Virus record (IMG/VR): IMGVR_UViG_3300029132_000006
Coordinates: 1-54,653 of that record
DNA from: a virus
DNA length: 54,653 bases
Strand: one strand, 5' to 3'
Shown: piece by piece, positions 862 to 53,829 of the stretch
Layout: each line of letters opens with the position of its first letter
How positions within the stretch are numbered: the first letter of the stretch is position 1
Program-made: the position numbers and the translations under genes
The notes under the pieces: generated by a model
The model's database searches: none
The model's input: the letters and a program-made list of their open reading frames with translations, nothing else
What the model was told of the DNA's origin: nothing

Positions 862-1746
862 CTATTCTGCCTGCATGAATGGCGGTAATGTGCTATCTTC
901 TGTCTGCTCTTCGGTTACTTCTGTGGCTGTACCCTCGATAATGTCGCTTTCTTCAAAATCAACGCTATTTGCGTTCTGTTCAATGTCGTAAGCAACATCC
1001 TGTTCAAGCATTTTATCGTGGCTGATTTCCTCATAATCCTCATTTTCATTACCACTATGAGAATTATTGATATATTTAAGAAGCCTATTTTTAACAGTTT
1101 TCATAGCCATCTGGTCAGCAAATTTCTGATGAGCGCCATTGCCATTCTCTTTGTAGCCATATCCCTGTTTCCAAGCCTGCTTAATCTGTGCAATAGTCAT
1201 AACCTCTGCTATCTTCTCTCCGTCATCCATAATCGCCACTGCATAAGCCCCGGTAATCTTATCATTGTCAATGTTCTCAAAACTCTGTTCGTGGCAATCA
1301 ATAATTGTTTTTGCGTCCTCTTTGTGGTACTTGAATACATCCCCTTTATAAATGACCGCTGCGTTAATGTCTTTAAGTCCGAATCTCCTTGCTATACAAG
1401 TGTTTCCATACACTGACTTCTGACACTGTAGCTTGCCGCCATAAGCAACTGGGTAGCACTGTTTCTTCTGCATTGAAAGTCCGTTCGTAACCATTTCAAC
1501 AAGTGCATTCTCAATACTTGCCCTTGTGCAACTCTGTAATACAGGCTTCTTATTCATATCTACTGTGTCCTGTAAAATCAGCATTGCCGACATAAACTCG
1601 TTTGTGTAGTTGTAATCTTTAGGGAATGTCAAGCCGAATTTCTCTTTTTGCTTAATTTTAACAACCATTCCCTCTGTAAAATCTTTTGCTACAAGTTCTC
1701 TGCTTTCAGCTTCTTTCTTTTCCGCAACTGCTGTATTCTCTGCCAT
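862..1746 (-). CDS. recT: RecT-family single-strand annealing protein.
   Basis: 294 aa. The core resembles RecT (YGGKLQCQKSVYG...ITGAYAVAIMDDGE...MTIAQIKQAW) with an acidic C-terminal tail. Confidence 0.75.
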   Translation of the reverse strand: MAENTAVAEKKEAESRELVAKDFTEGMVVKIKQKEKFGLTFPKDYNYTNEFMSAMLILQDTVDMNKKPVLQSCTRASIENALVEMVTNGLSMQKKQCYPVAYGGKLQCQKSVYGNTCIARRFGLKDINAAVIYKGDVFKYHKEDAKTIIDCHEQSFENIDNDKITGAYAVAIMDDGEKIAEVMTIAQIKQAWKQGYGYKENGNGAHQKFADQMAMKTVKNRLLKYINNSHSGNENEDYEEISHDKMLEQDVAYDIEQNANSVDFEESDIIEGTATEVTEEQTEDSTLPPFMQAE

Positions 1747-33159: not shown

Positions 33160-34113
33160 TCACTCCTTACTTTCGCACCAACTGCTCTTACAAGTGTGGT
33201 TCATAATATTAATCAAAACCTTTTCAGAAGAAAAGTGAACTAAGCTGTAATCACATTGTGCTGAAAACTTTGTATTGAAATATTCATCAACTAACATCTT
33301 GTAGTCTGTATTATCGTCCATATCACTTATAGCCGCATAATAGGTATCTGTATATCCGTCACGCTCTATGTCGGTTTCTTTTGTTAAATTATCTACCACT
33401 CTTGATAGAACCTTGTCCGTTAATGGGTAATGATATTTCCCAGTACATTCTCCGTGTTTATCTAAAAAGTATTTAAAGAATGCTTCTACATTTTCTTTGA
33501 GCGTTTTATCATTAGTCCAATCATAAGCTATCTTGCCAGCTCTACTTATCATTCTTTCCTCGGCAACTTCCCAATCACTTTGAGAGTATTCGCTTATCGG
33601 CTTAAACTCTTTCGCTTTTTTATCTTTGGGTAAAAAAGAATTGCACTGTTCTCTGTTAAGAGAATTACTTTTAGTATTTAATTCATTAGTATTTTGTATA
33701 TTAATATTTAATTCATCAGTACTTAATTCATTAGTATTTAATTGTCCGTGGTTTTCTACCTGTTGACATTCAACCCCTAGATTTTCTGTATCTTGTTTTT
33801 CTATTTTCTGTTTATATGGTTCTTCGTAAACCTCGTAGGTGTACTTTATTCTTCCACCATTGCTTTTTGTCGGGTTTTCCTTAGTAACCACAACATAATT
33901 ATTATCCCTTAACTCATTTAAAGCCGATTTAACAGCTGTTTCATTCTCTTTACTTATTGCAACTAACCCAGCTATTGAATAATCCCAATTATCGGGCAAT
34001 GAAAGCATTACAGACAATAATCCTTTTGCTTTCAAGCTTAAGCTCTTATCCCTTAAATGAGTATTACTCATAACTGTGTAATTTTTTGTTTTATGCACTC
34101 TGATTGTTGCCAT
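33160..34113 (-). CDS. Winged-helix DNA-binding protein, replication-initiator-like, carrying internal iteron-like DNA repeats.
   Basis: N-terminal YTVMSNTHLRDKSLSLKAKGLLSVMLSLPDNWDYSIAGL...ALNELRDNNYV pattern seen in Firmicutes Rep/DnaD-like wHTH proteins. Three copies of TAATTCATYAGTA lie at about 33679-33740. Confidence 0.5.
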   Translation of the reverse strand: MATIRVHKTKNYTVMSNTHLRDKSLSLKAKGLLSVMLSLPDNWDYSIAGLVAISKENETAVKSALNELRDNNYVVVTKENPTKSNGGRIKYTYEVYEEPYKQKIEKQDTENLGVECQQVENHGQLNTNELSTDELNINIQNTNELNTKSNSLNREQCNSFLPKDKKAKEFKPISEYSQSDWEVAEERMISRAGKIAYDWTNDKTLKENVEAFFKYFLDKHGECTGKYHYPLTDKVLSRVVDNLTKETDIERDGYTDTYYAAISDMDDNTDYKMLVDEYFNTKFSAQCDYSLVHFSSEKVLINIMNHTCKSSWCESKE

Positions 34114-34236
34114 ATTGAATACCTCCGCTTGATATTATTTATGTATGCCTGTGATACACACTCCGCTTAATCAATAAAAACAACAAACAGGCACAGCGGA
34201 AGTGCTTTTCGGTCTGCATCACCTAGTTTGTTGTAA

Positions 34237-34308
34237 TCGGATAGACAGGACTTGAACCTGTGACTACTTGAATAAATCAAGCGTTACTCCCAACTGAACT
34301 ACTATCCG
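34237..34308 (-). tRNA. tRNA with anticodon UUA (reads UAA; suppressor-type), or a degenerate tRNA.
   Basis: Hand fold: acceptor CGGATAG/CTATCCG plus A73; anticodon stem GCTTG/CAAGT; loop ATTTATT; T-arm ACAGG-TTCAAGT-CCTGT. Atypical features are an imperfect D-stem (GTTC...GTAAC) and U at position 37. Confidence 0.55.
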
Positions 34309-34746
34309 TCAACTTGTAAGAATTTCTGACAAGTTGAAATAAAAAAGACTAGCACAGAGAGATTAAACAATTCACATTTATAAATCACTTTGGAGGTCAT
34401 TTATACGCTTAAAAATATTGTTTTGAGTGGATATAAAGTGCTAGTCTTAACAGCAGTATAGGCTATGACACCTATAACAGGTCGTGGCAAAGCTGGATGG
34501 AAGTGATTACGCCCGTGCAGTTTGGCTGTTCAAAGAAAGTGGCTTCGCTCGCTGTCTATCCCTTAAGGATAACTGCTGATTATGAAATATTTGAAATAAT
34601 TACTACGCATATTTGTGTGGGATATGCGTAAAACCTCACGGACTTTCTGACGGTCCTTAACAGCTCTTGCTATGAGGTGAAAGGAGAACTTAATGCTAGT
34701 AAACCAATAAGTCCTGTAAAGGCACAAGTGTAATTAAACACTTGAA
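34309..34746 (-). ncRNA. ORF-free, helix-rich 438-nt spacer between two tRNAs; a candidate large structured ncRNA.
   Basis: At least nine helices of 5-11 bp can be drawn, including nested long-range pairs (listed in the findings). No credible ORF on either strand. Confidence 0.35.
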
Positions 34747-34818
34747 CTACCCCTGTGGGATTTGAACCCACGATACAGGAATCAAAATCCTGTGCCTTGA
34801 CCACTTGGCTAAGGGGCA
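34747..34818 (-). tRNA. tRNA-Gln (anticodon UUG).
   Basis: Hand fold: acceptor TGCCCCT/AGGGGTA with U1-A72 and G73 (Gln-like); anticodon arm CAGGA-TTTTGAT-TCCTG; T-arm GTGGG-TTCAAAT-CCCAC. Confidence 0.8.
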
Positions 34819-34823
34819 ATATG

Positions 34824-37653: not shown

Positions 37654-37860
37654 TTATTTTTTCTCTACATATTTAATGATGTTTCCCGGTTGCATATCCA
37701 ACAACTCACATAGCTTTTCTATTGTCTTAATTCCCACCATTTCATTTTTGCGTATCTTCTGCACTGCTGATTGGCTGATTAAGTTCTCTTTTAATATGCG
37801 TGTGGAATTATAGCCACTTTCTTTAAGCGTATCAAGCACATCTATTTTATATACAAGCAT
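37654..37860 (-). CDS. XRE-family HTH regulator (Cro-like).
   Basis: LISQSAVQKIRKNEMVGIKTIEKLCELLDMQPGNII is an HTH_26/XRE pattern. Confidence 0.7.
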   Translation of the reverse strand: MLVYKIDVLDTLKESGYNSTRILKENLISQSAVQKIRKNEMVGIKTIEKLCELLDMQPGNIIKYVEKK

Positions 37861-37955
37861 AGCTTTGTACCCTCCTATATTTTTTTCTTACATTATATAA
37901 TTTGTGGCTTATAAAGTCAATTAAAAAATAATCTAAAAAAAGTTTATTTTAGCTA

Positions 37956-37984
37956 TTGACTTTAAACCGTTTTAGGTTTATTAT
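37956..37984 (+). promoter_or_regulatory. Promoter TTGACT-17-TATTAT, divergent from the 37860 HTH gene.
   Basis: Spacing counted by hand. Confidence 0.55.
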
Positions 37985-38099
37985 AATAACTGTCAAGAGG
38001 ACATACAAAAAGGCGGTCACTCCTACCAAGAACGAACCGCCACCAATCAAAAAGAAAGGTAAGCCGATTATATCACAGTCGGCGAAATGGTACAAGGTT

Positions 38100-38369
38100 A
38101 TGAAAAAGATTAATGAATTGGAAATTTTTGGAAAAAGATGGTTTCAGAAGTCGTATGGCAACACATACCACACCACAACAGTTATTGTAAATGGTGAAGA
38201 ATTCAAAAGCAGCATTAAATACGGTTATGGAAACGCTTATTTGCAGACCGCCGCAGACCTTCTCCGCGTGAATGGTTATGAAGTCCCAGAAGATAATGGC
38301 GAGGCTTTCCATACAATGTGCGGATATTCGCACAGCGTAGAAGATGTAGGTAGAAAAAAAGATTTGTAA
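38100..38369 (+). CDS. Hypothetical 89-aa protein (conserved GKRWFQKSYGNTYHT...YGYGNAYLQTA type).
   Basis: Internal ATG chosen because the track start coincides with the promoter -35. The RBS is weak. Confidence 0.5.
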   Translation: MKKINELEIFGKRWFQKSYGNTYHTTTVIVNGEEFKSSIKYGYGNAYLQTAADLLRVNGYEVPEDNGEAFHTMCGYSHSVEDVGRKKDL

Positions 38370-38372
38370 AAT

Positions 38373-38422
38373 CAAGCAGACATAGGCGGTGCGGTTCCGG
38401 GGTTCGATTCCCCGGCTTGCTA
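38373..38422 (+). ncRNA. tRNA-like element 1: canonical T-arm plus a short acceptor-like stem (partial tRNA or minihelix).
   Basis: CCGGGG-TTCGATT-CCCCGG; 5' CAAGC (38373-38377) pairs with GCTTG (38415-38419); followed by CTA. No D or anticodon arm. Confidence 0.45.
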
Positions 38423-38428
38423 AAATAA

Positions 38429-38459
38429 AAGAGAGGAAGTACAATATACTTCCTCTCTT
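38429..38459. terminator. 13-bp perfect hairpin (AAGAGAGGAAGTA / TACTTCCTCTCTT).
   Basis: The A/T-rich run lies on the upstream (plus-strand) side, so the U-tract is better for minus-strand transcripts. Confidence 0.55.
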
Positions 38460-38555
38460 ACCATTCAAAATAGCACTTGTCCTAAAAATATACAACAACA
38501 AATGTCTTTGTTATAATAGCATATAAAATATAAAAAGTAAAGGAGATTTAAAAAG

Positions 38556-39278
38556 ATGGCAGGATATTATAAAAATCAAATGAGTAACAACGCCGTTTGG
38601 GCGTATTCGCAAGGTGAAAAACCTATGTATAAGTGGACTAAAACCACTATTTTAGAAGAGATAGATAACATTTTTTGGCACGCTGATAAAAAAACAGAAA
38701 TGGATTTTAAAAAAATGACATTAAAAGAATTGAAAGAGAATTTTCTGGTGTGGTCTTCCTGGCATCATACAGGAAAAATTTACAATGAAACAGATTTTTA
38801 TTGTATAGAAGAAAATGCAGTATTAAACTTTACGGTTAAAGAATTCGATGAAATTATATCTAACAGAAAAAAGAGAACGTATACAAGAAGAACTGCGGCA
38901 GAGTTAGAACAGATTAAAGCAGAAAAAGAAAAAGATATATTGCTTACCGAGAGAAGCAAAGAAATTTATAGAAAATTATATATAATTTATATATATAAAT
39001 CAGATTTAAAAACCTTTAAGGGTTTAATAAACAGGTTTTTGAATGATAAAATAAATATAGAAAAAGATTTTGCCGAAAGTGTAGAAATCGCAAGGCAAAA
39101 AGAAGAGCACAGAATAAAATGCTGGCAAGGAGATGTAAACGACTGGCACAACAGAGAAGGAATTGTTGATTTGTATTATAAAGACATAAGTACCTATGTC
39201 TTAAAAATGCGAGGAGTGGAAAATTATCAAATTGATAAAAAGCTTTTAAAACAAATAAAAAACAAAATAATGAATTAG
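38556..39278 (+). CDS. Hypothetical protein (N-terminal MSNNAVWAYSQGEKPMYKWTK motif family).
   Basis: Track ORF with AAAGGAG RBS and a TGTTATAAT extended -10 upstream. Confidence 0.65.
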   Translation: MAGYYKNQMSNNAVWAYSQGEKPMYKWTKTTILEEIDNIFWHADKKTEMDFKKMTLKELKENFLVWSSWHHTGKIYNETDFYCIEENAVLNFTVKEFDEIISNRKKRTYTRRTAAELEQIKAEKEKDILLTERSKEIYRKLYIIYIYKSDLKTFKGLINRFLNDKINIEKDFAESVEIARQKEEHRIKCWQGDVNDWHNREGIVDLYYKDISTYVLKMRGVENYQIDKKLLKQIKNKIMN

Positions 39279-39284
39279 CTTTTT

Positions 39285-39311
39285 AAGGGCGTACAATCTG
39301 CGCCCTTTTTG
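39285..39311 (+). terminator. Rho-independent terminator.
   Basis: AAGGGCG-tacaatctg-CGCCCTT followed by TTT. Confidence 0.7.
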
Positions 39312-39351
39312 GCTTGCTCTGGTTTGGCTGGTTCGATTCCAGCCGCAAGCA
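39312..39351 (+). ncRNA. tRNA-like element 2: acceptor stem plus T-arm minihelix.
   Basis: GCTTGC - tctggttt - GGCTGG-TTCGATT-CCAGCC - GCAAGC - A. Two perfect 6-bp stems and a canonical T-loop. Confidence 0.5.
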
Positions 39352-39388
39352 CTAAGCGTATATATTTATATGCTTTTCTTTATGTACC

Positions 39389-39417
39389 TTGAAAAATTAA
39401 TATAACAATGCTATGCT
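39389..39417 (+). promoter_or_regulatory. Possible promoter TTGAAA-17-TATGCT facing the ORF-free region.
   Basis: Pattern match only. Confidence 0.3.
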
Positions 39418-39627
39418 TATATATAAGACTTTGTGCCTTTTTAGGTGTACAAGTGTACCCAGTTGGGGCGGCGTGCGTTCTGTTGAATTCTCCAGAACTG
39501 GCGACAGCTTCCACGACTTGCAAGGGCATATTATCCCCATTTTATGCAACGCTGCCAAAGGCGTTTTAAGGCTGTTTTGTTCTGTAGGCTTATAAGTCTA
39601 CACCGACACAATAAAACCGCCGCACAG

Positions 39628-39942
39628 GTCAAATCACAAAGTCACAAAGTCAAAACAAGCACGAATCGCAGCCGGTCAAGTTTATATAATGCACTTTAAT
39701 CTGTTAAAGTTTTTCATCAATTTTTCAGGGCAAATCCGAACGAAATCGGGAGCAAAAATTAAAATTCTGTGTAACCGATTTTTGGATTTCAAAATTGCAT
39801 ATGACGGGGGTTTCAAAAATTTCACATTATATTTTGTGGGAAAATTTTTTCAATTTTTTAAATAGGATTTGAACGAAATCTGAACCGAATTTTAAAAATT
39901 GTCAAAATCGTTTTTTCTGAATATCAAAGATGTATCCGGGGG
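39628..39942. repeat. Repeat-dense ORF-free DNA: GTCACAAAG-type short tandem repeats (39628-39659) and two 80-nt segments (39731-39810, 39863-39942) sharing ordered blocks.
   Basis: Shared blocks are GAACGAAATC, AAAAATT, CG(A/T)TTTTT, AT(T/A)TCAAA and CGGGGG, in the same order with a 132-nt period. Confidence 0.5.
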
Positions 39943-39956
39943 AGGTATCAAATGCG

Positions 39957-40103
39957 TTACCCCGAAATTTTTTGGCAACATTTTTCTGTATAAATCAATG
40001 CTTTACTTGAATACCGGCATTGACTAAGCTCATATATCAATAATTCTTTTGTCATAGTCGGATTAGTCTTTTGAATTATCTTTAACAACTCATCAATGCT
40101 CAT
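39957..40103 (-). CDS. Hypothetical 48-aa protein, last gene of the cargo operon.
   Basis: The ATG overlaps the upstream stop (TAATG); GGAGAGTGGG lies upstream. Confidence 0.4.
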   Translation of the reverse strand: MSIDELLKIIQKTNPTMTKELLIYELSQCRYSSKALIYTEKCCQKISG

Positions 40104-43482: not shown

Positions 43483-43759
43483 ACTACACACTTTTAATCC
43501 TGTCACTACACACTTACTACACACTTTTGCTATTGAAATACATAGAAATACATAGAAATATGTGGAAATTGATAATCAGTCCAATGCCACTTAAAAACCC
43601 TTAAATACCGCATTTATCGTGCTTTTTGTTAAGTTCATAAGGAGTTGTCTGATATACGTAATAAGTTTTCCAAGTTAAATATATTATACATCTTAACCCC
43701 CATTGTTTTGTGGTTTTTTTCAATTTTAATGTGTGTAGTACTACACACTTACTACACAG
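43483..43759. other. Probable attP region with arm-type repeats.
   Basis: ACTACACACTT occurs at 43483, 43505, 43516 and 43740. ACTACACAG is at 43751, inverted GTGTGTAGT at 43731, and GAAATACATA tandem repeats at 43535-43564. The region directly abuts the int 3' end. Confidence 0.55.
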
Positions 43760-44939
43760 CACTTTTTTTAAAATCAACAATGTTGTCCTTGTCTTTCACA
43801 ATTCTTTCAATATCTACTGCCGCTCTTTCTTCTGTTACGTGTGTATATAAATCCATTGTCATTTTAAGAGTTGCATGACCTAAATATGATTGAACAACTT
43901 TCGGCTCTATGCCCGACTCAAAACATCTTGTCGCAAACGTATGTCTTAAAGTATGTCCACTAAACACAGGAAATTCGTTATCAAAACTTCTTGCAAGATT
44001 TATCTGCTTAACAATAGCTTTAATTGAATCTGAATAAATCTGCGAATTGAGAGGCGTGTTATAACTTGTCACAAACAAATAATTGTTCTGCTCTTTAGGT
44101 CTTTTGCACTTTACAATATCCTTTAATTCGAACTGCTTTTCAAGATATTTAATGCATTCGCTGTTAATAGGTACTTGTCTATAACTCTGTTTGGTTTTAG
44201 GCGGCTCAATGTGAAAAGTTTTGCACTTATCATCAAGGTATTTTTGATACACAAGTGTCTTATTAACATCAATATACCCCTCATCTAAGTGTATATCATT
44301 AGGTGTAAGTGCAAACAGTTCTCCTGGGCGCAAGCCTGTATTAACTGCCACATTATACAAATTATCGTAAAATGTCCCTTTACTTGCTTCTAAAAACTCT
44401 ATCTGTTGTTTTGCTGTTAGTGTGAAAGCTTTAAGTTCTTTATCAGCCCTAAGCTTTACACCTTTTGCTGGATTTTTAATCATTAAGTCATCTTCTATTG
44501 CTCTACTGAACATATCATTAAGTATAACCTTAATCTTGTTCTGCCGTTCATATTTATAATTGTCATCAGCTATTTTATCAATTAGTGTTTGAATATCTGA
44601 TTTAACAAAGGAATTTATGTTGCGATTTCCTAAAAAAGGTGATATATTTTTATTGTATATGTGAGTGTATTCTCTAAGGGTATTAGGGCGTACACTTTTC
44701 TTTTTGTACACTTCTATCCAACGATTAAACCAATCGTCCAGCTTAATATCATCTCTAATGCTTGTAAATTGAATATTTTCTGCTATTGCAACAGCCAATT
44801 CTTTTTTAACTTCTGATAACTTTGTGCCATAAATATATTTAATCTTATTAAATCTATCTTTATATCTCCCTTGATACACACCGTCCTTTCGCTGCGACAA
44901 TCCTACACCTAGTTCTTTACCTTTTAAATCTTTTCCCAT
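43752..44939 (-). CDS. int: Tyrosine recombinase / phage integrase.
   Basis: C-terminal HTLRHTFATRCFESGIEPKVVQSYLGHATLKMTMDLYTHV (R..H..R..Y catalytic signature). Confidence 0.9.
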   Translation of the reverse strand: MGKDLKGKELGVGLSQRKDGVYQGRYKDRFNKIKYIYGTKLSEVKKELAVAIAENIQFTSIRDDIKLDDWFNRWIEVYKKKSVRPNTLREYTHIYNKNISPFLGNRNINSFVKSDIQTLIDKIADDNYKYERQNKIKVILNDMFSRAIEDDLMIKNPAKGVKLRADKELKAFTLTAKQQIEFLEASKGTFYDNLYNVAVNTGLRPGELFALTPNDIHLDEGYIDVNKTLVYQKYLDDKCKTFHIEPPKTKQSYRQVPINSECIKYLEKQFELKDIVKCKRPKEQNNYLFVTSYNTPLNSQIYSDSIKAIVKQINLARSFDNEFPVFSGHTLRHTFATRCFESGIEPKVVQSYLGHATLKMTMDLYTHVTEERAAVDIERIVKDKDNIVDFKKSAV

Positions 44940-52780: not shown

Positions 52781-53110
52781 CTAAAACGGACACGCATTTT
52801 TACTTTGCATTTCATTAAGCATATCTTCCATTTCTTTAATAAATCCATCAAAGCAATGCTTTATAAATTTTTCTTCTTCCGAAGTGTACGATTTTCTTAA
52901 ACCACAATACCCAAAATCTTCATACTGGCATTTATAGCAGTAATCAACGTGAAGTATCTTTGTTGCCTGCGAATACAATTCCCACATTTCCTCGAAATTA
53001 TTTCTACACTTTGATTTCTTGGCTTTAGAGATGTAATGCCTTAATGCGTTTTGTTCTGTCATATATTTTTCGCCTGTAATCAAGTTTGTATATCTACTCA
53101 AAACAGACAT
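52781..53110 (-). CDS. Hypothetical protein.
   Basis: Track ORF. Confidence 0.5.
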   Translation of the reverse strand: MSVLSRYTNLITGEKYMTEQNALRHYISKAKKSKCRNNFEEMWELYSQATKILHVDYCYKCQYEDFGYCGLRKSYTSEEEKFIKHCFDGFIKEMEDMLNEMQSKNACPF

Positions 53111-53829
53111 TCATCTCCTTTCCTTAAAATCCAACTCTTGCCCTGTTCTGCAACATCTACATTCACCCCATTTACGGCATTTTTCATCTTCTCGATAAAA
53201 CTATCCTTATCAGCATTTTCACTTGACAAATGACACATTATGACATTCTGCAAGCTGTCTGAATCGTTAGCTTTAACAAAATCGCAAGCGGTATCAATGG
53301 ATAAGTGACCTCTGAAAACGTGGTTAGCTTTGCCTGTGTTGTCTCTGTCGATTAAATTCTTGTCATAATTCACACCTAAGAGAATGTGGTTTATGTCTTT
53401 AAACTTCCACTTGACAACCTCGCAATCGGTTATGTAAAGCATTCTTCCCATTTCGTTGTGTGTAATCAGAAAGCCGAATATCGGGCAAGGTGTTCCATCT
53501 GCATTTGTATGCGTCCAGCTTCCATCTATCGTTGTTAGGTCAAACGCTCTTACAGTAAAATAAGAATTTGCTAGAAACTGATTCATAAGTAAAGTTTCGT
53601 ATGGCTTACATACGGGAATACCCATAGTTTCAAAATCTTTTAATGACTTGCTGTGGTCAAGGTGCTTATGGGTGCATAAGACACCCACAACATCTTTAAT
53701 ATTCCAATCTAAGCCTTTTTTAATCTCCTTAATCGGTATTCCACAATCAAGGATAAGTGTTTCTCCGCTGTTGGAAGTTAGCAGATAGCAATTTCCGGCT
53801 GATGATGAGCCTAAACATTTTAGCTTCAT
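53098..53829 (-). CDS. Metallo-beta-lactamase-fold hydrolase/nuclease.
   Basis: LGSSSAGNCYLL...ILDCG...THKHLDH (HxHxDH motif). Confidence 0.8.
   Translation of the reverse strand: MKLKCLGSSSAGNCYLLTSNSGETLILDCGIPIKEIKKGLDWNIKDVVGVLCTHKHLDHSKSLKDFETMGIPVCKPYETLLMNQFLANSYFTVRAFDLTTIDGSWTHTNADGTPCPIFGFLITHNEMGRMLYITDCEVVKWKFKDINHILLGVNYDKNLIDRDNTGKANHVFRGHLSIDTACDFVKANDSDSLQNVIMCHLSSENADKDSFIEKMKNAVNGVNVDVAEQGKSWILRKGDECLF

Follow-up and report, generated by a model that had tools for sequence, protein, structure and literature searches.

tRNA-like minihelices between phage genes: candidate RNA-processing signals that occupy the same slots as hammerhead ribozymes

What are two short tRNA-like structures doing on either side of a single gene in a phage operon? 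The question is raised by IMG/VR virus record IMGVR_UViG_3300029132_000006, a stretch of 54,653 nucleotides (nt) that was analyzed whole and is called the window below. It is a ~55-kb temperate siphophage-like genome, with genes mostly on the minus strand, that encodes a portal, a terminase, a capsid protein, RecT, SSB and a tyrosine integrase together with Cro/C1-type and ImmA-like genes. The two structures, named E1 and E2, lie in a plus-strand early operon on either side of a gene for a 240-residue protein. An earlier sequence-only reading had offered three explanations for them: relics of tRNA-targeted integration, tRNA-mimic RNA ends, or decoys for tRNA-directed nucleases. Comparative evidence supports the tRNA-mimic option best: the stems covary, the T-loop is of the tRNA type, the stack measures 12 bp, the wobble pairs are those of the sense strand, and the elements interchange with hammerhead ribozymes and with a real tRNA. 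In the reading we favor, to which we give somewhat better than even credence, E1 and E2 would be mimics of the tRNA elbow that act as intercistronic RNA-processing signals and are cut by host RNase P and RNase Z.

E2 can be read directly from the window as a perfect acceptor-like stem stacked on a T-arm, each of 6 bp. Its 5′ half consists of GCTTGC (39312-39317), the 8-nt linker TCTGGTTT (39318-39325) and GGCTGG (39326-39331); its 3′ half continues with TTCGATT (39332-39338), CCAGCC (39339-39344), GCAAGC (39345-39350) and a trailing A (39351). The predicted minimum free energy (MFE) structure is the fold as drawn, at -18.4 kcal/mol and 71% of the ensemble, with a z-score of -2.3 that falls to -5.0 when both flanking hairpins are included. 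In E1, the T-arm is made of CCGGGG (38397-38402), the same T-loop TTCGATT (38403-38409) and CCCCGG (38410-38415), followed by the 3′ strand CTTGCT (38416-38421) and an A (38422); the linker measures 19-20 nt, and the 5′ partner is either CAAGC (38373-38377) or ATCAAG (38371-38376), the latter with one U.C mismatch. The minihelix first proposed for E1 thus stands as to its T-arm, while the acceptor-like stem has decayed. The two elements have the octamer GGCTTGCT in common (38414-38421 and 39311-39318), as had been noted, and the recurrence of the T-arm motif is not a matter of chance: allowing up to one mismatch, GGTTCGATTCC has only two sites in 54.6 kb, E1 and E2, against an expectation of 0.27, and 2 of 100 shuffled sequences reach two matches.

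Comparison with relatives indicates that E1 has decayed in the window, the same element being perfect elsewhere. Most relatives carry AGCAAG-GTTGGCGCTT-CCGGGG-TTCGATT-CCCCGG-CTTGCT, and the element that follows the orthologous upstream gene in related locus L191, GGCAAG-TGCAGACGGTGAAGCGTT-CCGGGG..., is an intact version of it. In other cassette types E1 is followed by a small hairpin and a ribosome-binding site (RBS), whereas the hairpin at 38429-38459 is specific to the type with the 240-residue open reading frame (ORF). The usual trailing hairpin and RBS have been replaced in the window by a moron-like unit made of a minus-strand terminator, a promoter and this ORF.

The wider family was collected from about 190 related loci found in IMG/VR scans. 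A covariance model, R1, was built from 14 members of equal length because MAFFT misaligned the 5′ strands where linker lengths differ. In the window, R1 recovers E1 and E2 and nothing else; in the related loci, it gives 125 matches, spread over 100 of them. The family is present in over 100 related phage contigs from the gut, of Lachnospiraceae type. The acceptor-like stem covaries among relatives (AGCAAG:CTTGCT, GGCAAG:CTTGCC, AGCAAC:GTTGCT and GGTAA:TTACC), and wholly different elements have stems such as AGTGAC/GTCACT, TCCGTT/GACGGA, TGCTAT/ATAGCA, AGCGGT/GCCGCT and GCAACC/GGTTGT, among others. In the R1 alignment, 97.3% of the cells are paired, versus 70.5% after shuffling; changes on both sides occur at 10 of the 12 pairs; and the covariation score is 0.631, compared with 0.145 for shuffled and at most 0.126 for slid alignments.

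What is conserved beyond pairing resembles a tRNA. The T-arm follows the pattern G53 T54 T55 C56 R57 A58 N N C61 and is stacked on the acceptor-like stem over about 12 bp. This coaxial stack is exactly 12 bp, the commonest length, in 36 of 84 members and 11-13 bp in 68. The innermost two T-stem pairs (GG/CC, or G52G53/C61C62) are invariant, and variation in the T-loop is confined to positions that vary in tRNAs (TTCGATT, TTCAACT, TTCGAAT and TTTGATT). The linker contains GG in 73 of the 84 members and is like a stem-less D-loop (AACGGTTT, GTTGGCG and TCTGGTTT); CCA is encoded in one. G.U or U.G cells number 37 and A.C or C.A cells 8, an excess that points to folding of the gene-sense RNA. A long-range pairing of E1 with E2 through their flipped GCTTGC/GCAAGC stems was considered as well and rejected: the E1 stem varies in relatives and the E2 stem is constant.

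The elements occupy a precise position between genes. A co-oriented ORF ends within 120 nt upstream in 93 of 98 distinct copies, and an RBS with an ORF lies 25-50 nt downstream in 83 of them. E1-type helices start at -1 to +6 nt relative to the stop codon (TAA-TT-AGCAAG, or TAG overlapping GGCAAG), and family elements in general start 0-9 nt past it. On the other side, a hairpin starts 3-4 nt past the element in 50 of 90 copies, versus about 12 of 90 in shuffles; this small hairpin often has a GNRA-like loop and is followed by an A-rich stretch and the RBS. The sequence-only reading had seen a pair of elements bracketing one mobile gene. The two sites are indeed there, and the ORF is flanked, as claimed, by its own promoter-like site and terminator; the view of a pair was too narrow, since these are two of many intercistronic elements.

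A series of elements is also found in an unrelated, cultured phage. Locus L162 proved to be Mycobacterium phage Cuke (NC_048696), which carries 10 or more copies, every one of them on the gene strand, at record positions 30.0-37.4 kb. Nearly all lie in ~90-nt gaps between small genes, and two overlap the annotated coding sequences gp43 and gp44. In the nine copies read in detail the stem pairs all differ, the linker AACGGTTTTCG is conserved (AAGGGTATAA in one), and behind each copy come a second hairpin, which covaries, and the RBS GGATGGAA. The GenBank record of Cuke has no annotation at the minihelix sites. The ORFs of gp43 and gp44 (L190 4430-4994) read through minihelices, with the peptide GSIP as the translation of GGTTCGATTCC, and are probably over-called. 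The copies in Cuke extend the family to phages of both Firmicutes and Actinobacteria.

These observations bear on two rival explanations. The first takes the elements for functionless remnants of phage tRNA genes that have been deleted. Real tRNA genes do occur in these phages and broken copies exist, namely the decayed E1 of the window and the copies in L016 and L025 that retain only a 3′ half; covariation of both stems, however, largely refutes this explanation, and the constant stack length, the fixed placement relative to stop codon, hairpin and RBS, and the many independent copies with unrelated stems within one genome also speak against it. We consider debris extremely unlikely. The second rival is that the RNA acts without being cut, on translation or transcription, either by coupling termination of one ORF to initiation at the next or as a protein-binding antitermination site of the nut/boxB kind. 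A helix that abuts or overlaps the stop codon would have to be unfolded by the terminating ribosome, the small hairpin (often with its GNRA-like loop) and the A-rich RBS region follow at a fixed distance, and the operon is an early one beside a Cro-like gene. Yet such a role requires neither a tRNA-type T-loop, nor a D-loop-like GG, nor a 12-bp stack; no ORF lies downstream of E2; and the interchange with a self-cleaving ribozyme, described next, indicates cleavage as the common property. An uncut regulatory RNA is therefore an unlikely account of the family.

Type II hammerhead ribozymes (Rfam RF02276, 49-64 bits) occur in the same early operons of relatives. A hammerhead pattern search found 40 distinct contexts in relatives and none in the window. 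In all contexts printed, the hammerhead starts 0-2 nt from a stop codon (TAG/CCGAAAC, TAA-G/CCGAAAC or TAA-AG/CCGAAAC, the slash marking its start), and in most it ends about 15-25 nt ahead of an RBS and ATG. Hammerheads and minihelices thus share both slot and orientation, and they replace each other at orthologous junctions. After the orthologue of the upstream gene of the window (38100-38369, ending ..EDVKRKKDL*), there is a hammerhead in L207, minihelices in L191 and L192, and E1 in the window; ahead of a downstream gene (MIKIDMWYGDKPEQ..), L204 has a hammerhead, whereas nine further loci have E1-type minihelices.

A tRNA takes part in the same interchange. In the window and 8 relatives, a tRNA stands 3 nt before an int-alpA RNA, and in the window this RNA in turn lies just ahead of a replication-initiator-like gene (33160-34113); in L046, a minihelix stands in place of the tRNA, 1 nt before the int-alpA RNA. 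The tRNA of the window (34237-34308, minus strand) is called by ARAGORN as a suppressor with anticodon tta, a doubtful call, as the canonical 7-nt loop TTTATAA gives TAT (Ile, AUA). Genes of this type are also found in L097 and L148.

What a tRNA has in common with a self-cleaving ribozyme is that each specifies a precise cut in RNA. From their presence in the same intergenic slots as self-cleaving hammerheads, the minihelices are most likely message-cutting signals. The geometry agrees. A hammerhead that cleaves itself would end the upstream RNA with stem III and place stem I 1 nt from the downstream 5′ end; a cut at the 3′ edge of the minihelix would likewise leave the minihelix 3′-terminal, with 3-5 nt between the newly formed 5′ end and the second hairpin.

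If cleavage is the common property, the minihelix and its trailing hairpin might themselves form a self-cleaving RNA of a new class that needs no host enzyme. The positional interchange with hammerheads would fit, as would the conserved sequences of the linker and between helix and second hairpin (AACGGTTTTCG and A-CG in Cuke, YTTAC in gut phages). The conserved positions are nevertheless those of the tRNA T-loop and D-loop, which are read by RNase P, RNase Z and the CCA-adding enzyme, and there is no further invariant core common to the gut-phage and Cuke versions; we regard a new ribozyme as very improbable. A more speculative pair of ideas is a self-contained cleavage module built on the T-loop/D-loop scaffold, which would explain the one-for-one swap with hammerheads, and the related variant in which excised, CCA-tailed mini-tRNAs double as decoys for defense enzymes directed at the ends of tRNAs; both are highly doubtful.

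Alternatively, the excised minihelices could be the product rather than the by-product: small, stable and possibly CCA-tailed mini-tRNAs that decoy or titrate tRNA-binding host factors, such as tRNA-modifying enzymes or defense effectors directed against the acceptor ends of tRNAs. The retained tRNA elbow and 12-bp stack are compatible with such a role, the E1 sequence itself is strongly conserved in many phages with different neighbors, the elements sit in early, accessory-gene regions, and E2 serves no downstream gene. An acceptor stem that differs in every Cuke copy, though, fits a structural signal better than a specific decoy. The close coupling to stop codons, second hairpin and RBS would not be needed, and the swap with hammerheads, which yield no tRNA-like product, would go unexplained. 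Decoys are for these reasons improbable as the main function.

Tests against known RNA classes set the elements apart. The only ARAGORN calls in the window are 34237-34308 and 34746-34819, neither of them E1 or E2, and the Rfam tRNA model matches neither element even at E ≤ 10; both the D-arm and the anticodon arm are replaced by the linker of 8-20 nt. ARAGORN finds no transfer-messenger RNA (tmRNA) in the window, and the Rfam tmRNA and permuted-tmRNA models match a 17-nt T-arm only, at 8-13 bits versus a 47-bit cut-off. No family of Rfam 15, ribozymes included, scores up to its threshold on either element. The highest-scoring match is antisense, to a plastid untranslated region (UTR) model (28 bits versus a cut-off of 65.7 bits), and permissive E-values give only this match and T-arm fragments of the tmRNA and mascRNA models.

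Matches to host tRNA genes, as expected of relics of tRNA-targeted integration, are also missing. The genomes searched, one for each of 185,579 bacterial and archaeal species, contain no exact match to the 21-nt 3′ half of E2, GGTTCGATTCCAGCCGCAAGC. That of E1, GGTTCGATTCCCCGGCTTGCT, occurs in five contigs of this set, none at a called tRNA gene; they belong to Lachnospiraceae, Clostridium sp. CAG:510 and two probably mis-binned metagenome-assembled genomes, and in four of the five the sequence lies in a phage operon, after a gene and before a hairpin and RBS. These contigs suggest that the hosts of the phages are Lachnospiraceae-type Firmicutes. The att-like option of the sequence-only reading is abandoned on these grounds, together with the 4.4 kb that separate the integrase from E2 and the lack of a common crossover core. 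The elements are neither tRNA genes, nor att relics, nor chance.

The predicted polymorphism of the cassette, on the other hand, is borne out. Relatives have at least 8 gene sets of 243-896 nt between E1 and E2 and at least 5 different genes upstream of E1. The flanks of E1-type T-arms fall into 50 upstream and 66 downstream clusters, with 95 combinations in 114 contexts, so that they reassort freely. Breakpoints lie inside E1 in a few relatives. The family members, including copies within one genome, have no common crossover core. This polymorphism, the breakpoints within E1, the octamer GGCTTGCT common to E1 and E2, and the tyrosine integrase of the window could all be taken as signs of DNA recombination sites bounding mobile cassettes, whether tRNA-targeted att relics or cores or folded single-strand sites like integron attC. 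Several results argue otherwise. Neither 3′ half is found in any host tRNA gene, and the integrase is distant (recombinase content was assessed by Pfam on the larger ORFs of the window). The inverse core typical of attC is lacking, as stem bases differ among the nine Cuke copies and among gut-phage types and conservation is limited to linker and T-loop. The tRNA-type T-loop and the excess of G.U over A.C indicate sense-strand RNA, and hammerhead ribozymes and tRNAs hold the same slots. Ordinary homologous exchange at short conserved islands, for which the phage encodes RecT, would suffice for the mosaicism and appears to fit it. Dedicated recombination sites are accordingly quite unlikely.

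Returning to RNase P and RNase Z, the proposed mechanism would run as follows. The elements would be transcribed within polycistronic phage mRNAs, and the tRNA-processing enzymes of the host would recognize their shape, in which a short, D-loop-like linker that forms no stem joins the acceptor-like stem to the T-arm on which it is stacked. The cut of RNase P would fall at the 5′ edge, abutting the upstream stop codon, and that of RNase Z past the 3′ strand; in this way the operon transcript would be divided at set positions. The message of the upstream gene would stop at the minihelix or just short of it, and that of the downstream gene would start 3-5 nt before the small hairpin that precedes the RBS, where this hairpin would be well placed to protect the new 5′ end. 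Hairpins close to the 5′ end protect bacterial mRNAs from 5′-end-dependent decay. As a side effect, the conserved elements would serve as islands of homology where gene modules swap. In the window, E1 is partly decayed, and its downstream neighbor has gained its own promoter.

A number of points weigh against this mechanism. First, transcription, cleavage and the acting enzymes are what we infer from structure, covariation, strand, placement and interchange. Second, E2 sits behind a terminator-like hairpin and would thus be transcribed by read-through only, and no gene lies downstream of it; its role may be to trim transcripts that read through, or to cap the operon. Third, the best context for bacterial RNase P (U at -1, G1:C72 and a 3′ RCCA) is not matched by the flanks of the helix, and a cut by RNase P right past the stop codon would deprive the upstream message of any protective structure at its 3′ end. 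Fourth, the covariation counts use a model-fitted alignment that leans towards the structure, and the sequence of E1 is conserved across phages beyond structural need. Finally, in the window's E1 the T-arm forms while the acceptor-like stem is absent from the MFE fold (z -0.08).

The features of the region are collected in Table 1. A BLASTN search with 37900-39700 against 50,697 GenBank phage records gave no match; the lineage of the window is known from metagenomes only. Neither Pfam nor PHROGs matches the 240-residue ORF, and among 5.8 billion proteins 13 relatives were found, with neither names nor domains; this gene offers no clue. In relatives L191-L197, the leader of the orthologue of gene 38100-38369 lies directly 3′ of a hammerhead ribozyme, with no promoter there. 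The terminator-like hairpin upstream of E2 is kept along with E2 across cassette types, and the hairpin past E2 is the counterpart of the second hairpin that trails other family members; E2 marks the end of the variable early operon.

Table 1. Positions of the features discussed, given for the window unless a related locus is named
Feature	Position	Strand	Remarks
RecT	862-1746		
int-alpA RNA (Rfam, 46 bits)	34165-34233	-	3 nt downstream of tRNA 34237-34308
Cro/C1-type helix-turn-helix gene	37654-37860	-	divergent from plus-strand early operon
Sigma-70-type promoter-like site TTGACT-17-TATTAT	37956-37984	+	head of plus-strand early operon
Leader hairpin GGCGGT...ACCGCC	38012-38041	+	conserved; 5′ leader of gene 38100-38369
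Gene for 89-residue protein, phrog_6246	38100-38369	+	stop TAA 38367-38369, 1 nt ahead of E1
E1, apparently decayed tRNA-like minihelix	38371-38422	+	covariance model 29 bits, E 3e-6
14-bp hairpin after E1	38429-38459		intrinsic terminator on minus strand only
Promoter-like site TATACA-17-TATAAT, extended TG	38489-38517	+	ahead of 240-residue ORF
240-residue ORF	38556-39278	+	one of at least 8 alternative E1-E2 gene sets in relatives
Intrinsic terminator-like hairpin and T-run	39285-39310 (terminator 39285-39307)	+	directly upstream of E2
E2, perfect tRNA-like minihelix	39312-39351	+	covariance model 33.3 bits, E 1.4e-7
AT-rich 9-bp hairpin AAGCGTATA/TATATGCTT	39354-39383	+	starts 3 nt past E2, then T-rich run
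Tyrosine integrase	43752-44939	-	4.4 kb from E2, five genes between
Hammerhead ribozymes in relatives	L046 4949-5018; L133 5346-5413; L071 6426-6495; L077 4522-4590	-	RF02276

Past E2 lie about 700 nt of non-coding DNA (39390-40100) that are 85-95% conserved in relatives with differing flanking genes. This region carries short direct repeats (GAACGAAATC twice and CACAAAGTCA twice) and promoter-like sites on both strands; it may represent an origin or the locus of a non-coding RNA. At 39853-39826 lies a strong promoter-like site of the minus strand, TTGAAA-16-TATAAT, which, together with the minus-strand terminator at 38429-38459, suggests antisense transcription across the 240-residue ORF. Elsewhere in the window, a minus-strand gene (53098-53829) encodes a 243-residue protein of the metallo-beta-lactamase fold (Pfam Lactamase_B / Lactamase_B_2) and adjoins a PAPS-reductase-like gene and the RecT/SSB module. 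This is also the fold of RNase Z, but the phage protein is more likely a DNA nuclease.

How do the minihelices compare with known systems? In mitochondrial tRNA punctuation, MALAT1 mascRNA and MEN-beta, RNase P and RNase Z cut tRNA shapes out of the long transcripts in which they are embedded, which sets the ends of the neighboring RNAs; coding regions can stop right at the tRNA. These are full tRNAs or cloverleaf mimics in eukaryotes, whereas the phage elements lack D-stem and anticodon arm and stand in operons of bacterial viruses. The tRNA-like domain of tmRNA is similar in having an acceptor on a T-arm, a stem-less D-loop analogue and no anticodon arm; unlike tmRNA, the minihelices have no mRNA-like part, tag reading frame, pseudoknots, G3:U70 or encoded CCA. 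Integron attC sites and attP cores resemble the elements in being structured, variable in sequence and placed just past stop codons at the borders of exchangeable cassettes, and attP cores hold a tRNA 3′ half. The minihelices differ from both by having no recombination core, host tRNA match or integrase adjacency, and by being conserved as folded sense-strand RNA.

Together with mitochondrial tRNA punctuation, the t-elements of plant mitochondria are the closest analogues. They were found by the same motif, GGTTCRANYCC, and RNase P and RNase Z cleave them (Forner et al. 2007, PMC1920247). Like the minihelices, t-elements are non-tRNA sequences with a T-arm motif and an acceptor-like stem that adjoin coding regions; in t-elements, processing by RNase P and RNase Z creates mRNA 3′ and 5′ ends, and they may abut or enter the ends of reading frames. 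By structure, the phage family would count among them, with a tRNA-mimic fold containing GGTTCRANYCC on the sense strand next to coding regions. There are differences: t-elements are ~74 nt long, adopt non-canonical cloverleaf-like folds and belong to organelles, whereas the phage elements are ~40-nt minihelices with only a D-loop-like linker. They occur in phages of Firmicutes and Actinobacteria, stand serially between cistrons and come with a second hairpin and an RBS, and their cleavage is a proposal made here. For hammerheads that flank prophage genes, including those of a Clostridium scindens prophage, a role in processing long transcripts has been proposed (Perreault et al. 2011, PMC3088659). 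The minihelices share with type II hammerheads (RF02276) the operons, the stop-abutting slot, the orientation, the swaps at orthologous junctions and a proposed role in producing gene-length mRNAs. They lack the hammerhead catalytic core, and cleavage would need the tRNA-processing enzymes of the host. No description of such phage elements was found in Rfam 15 or in the literature, of which coverage was incomplete. The principle is already known from organelles and MALAT1; the phage family, the minihelix form, the serial intercistronic use and the interchange with hammerheads appear to be new.

If RNase P and RNase Z do cut these elements, temperate phages of at least two bacterial phyla would run a mitochondria-like tRNA punctuation, with dedicated, anticodon-less mini-tRNAs and free switching between cutting that depends on host enzymes and self-cleaving hammerheads. 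The same logic would give a role to the hammerheads of prophages, long unclear, some phage tRNA genes may double as processing signals, and the recurrent mosaic boundaries in variable early, accessory-gene regions would be explained. For annotators, the minihelix would be a new feature to mask, as predicted ORFs of Cuke cross the elements, and for synthetic biology it would provide compact parts of ~40 nt for insulating genes inside operons. With Mycobacterium smegmatis and phage Cuke, the idea is directly testable in a cultured system.

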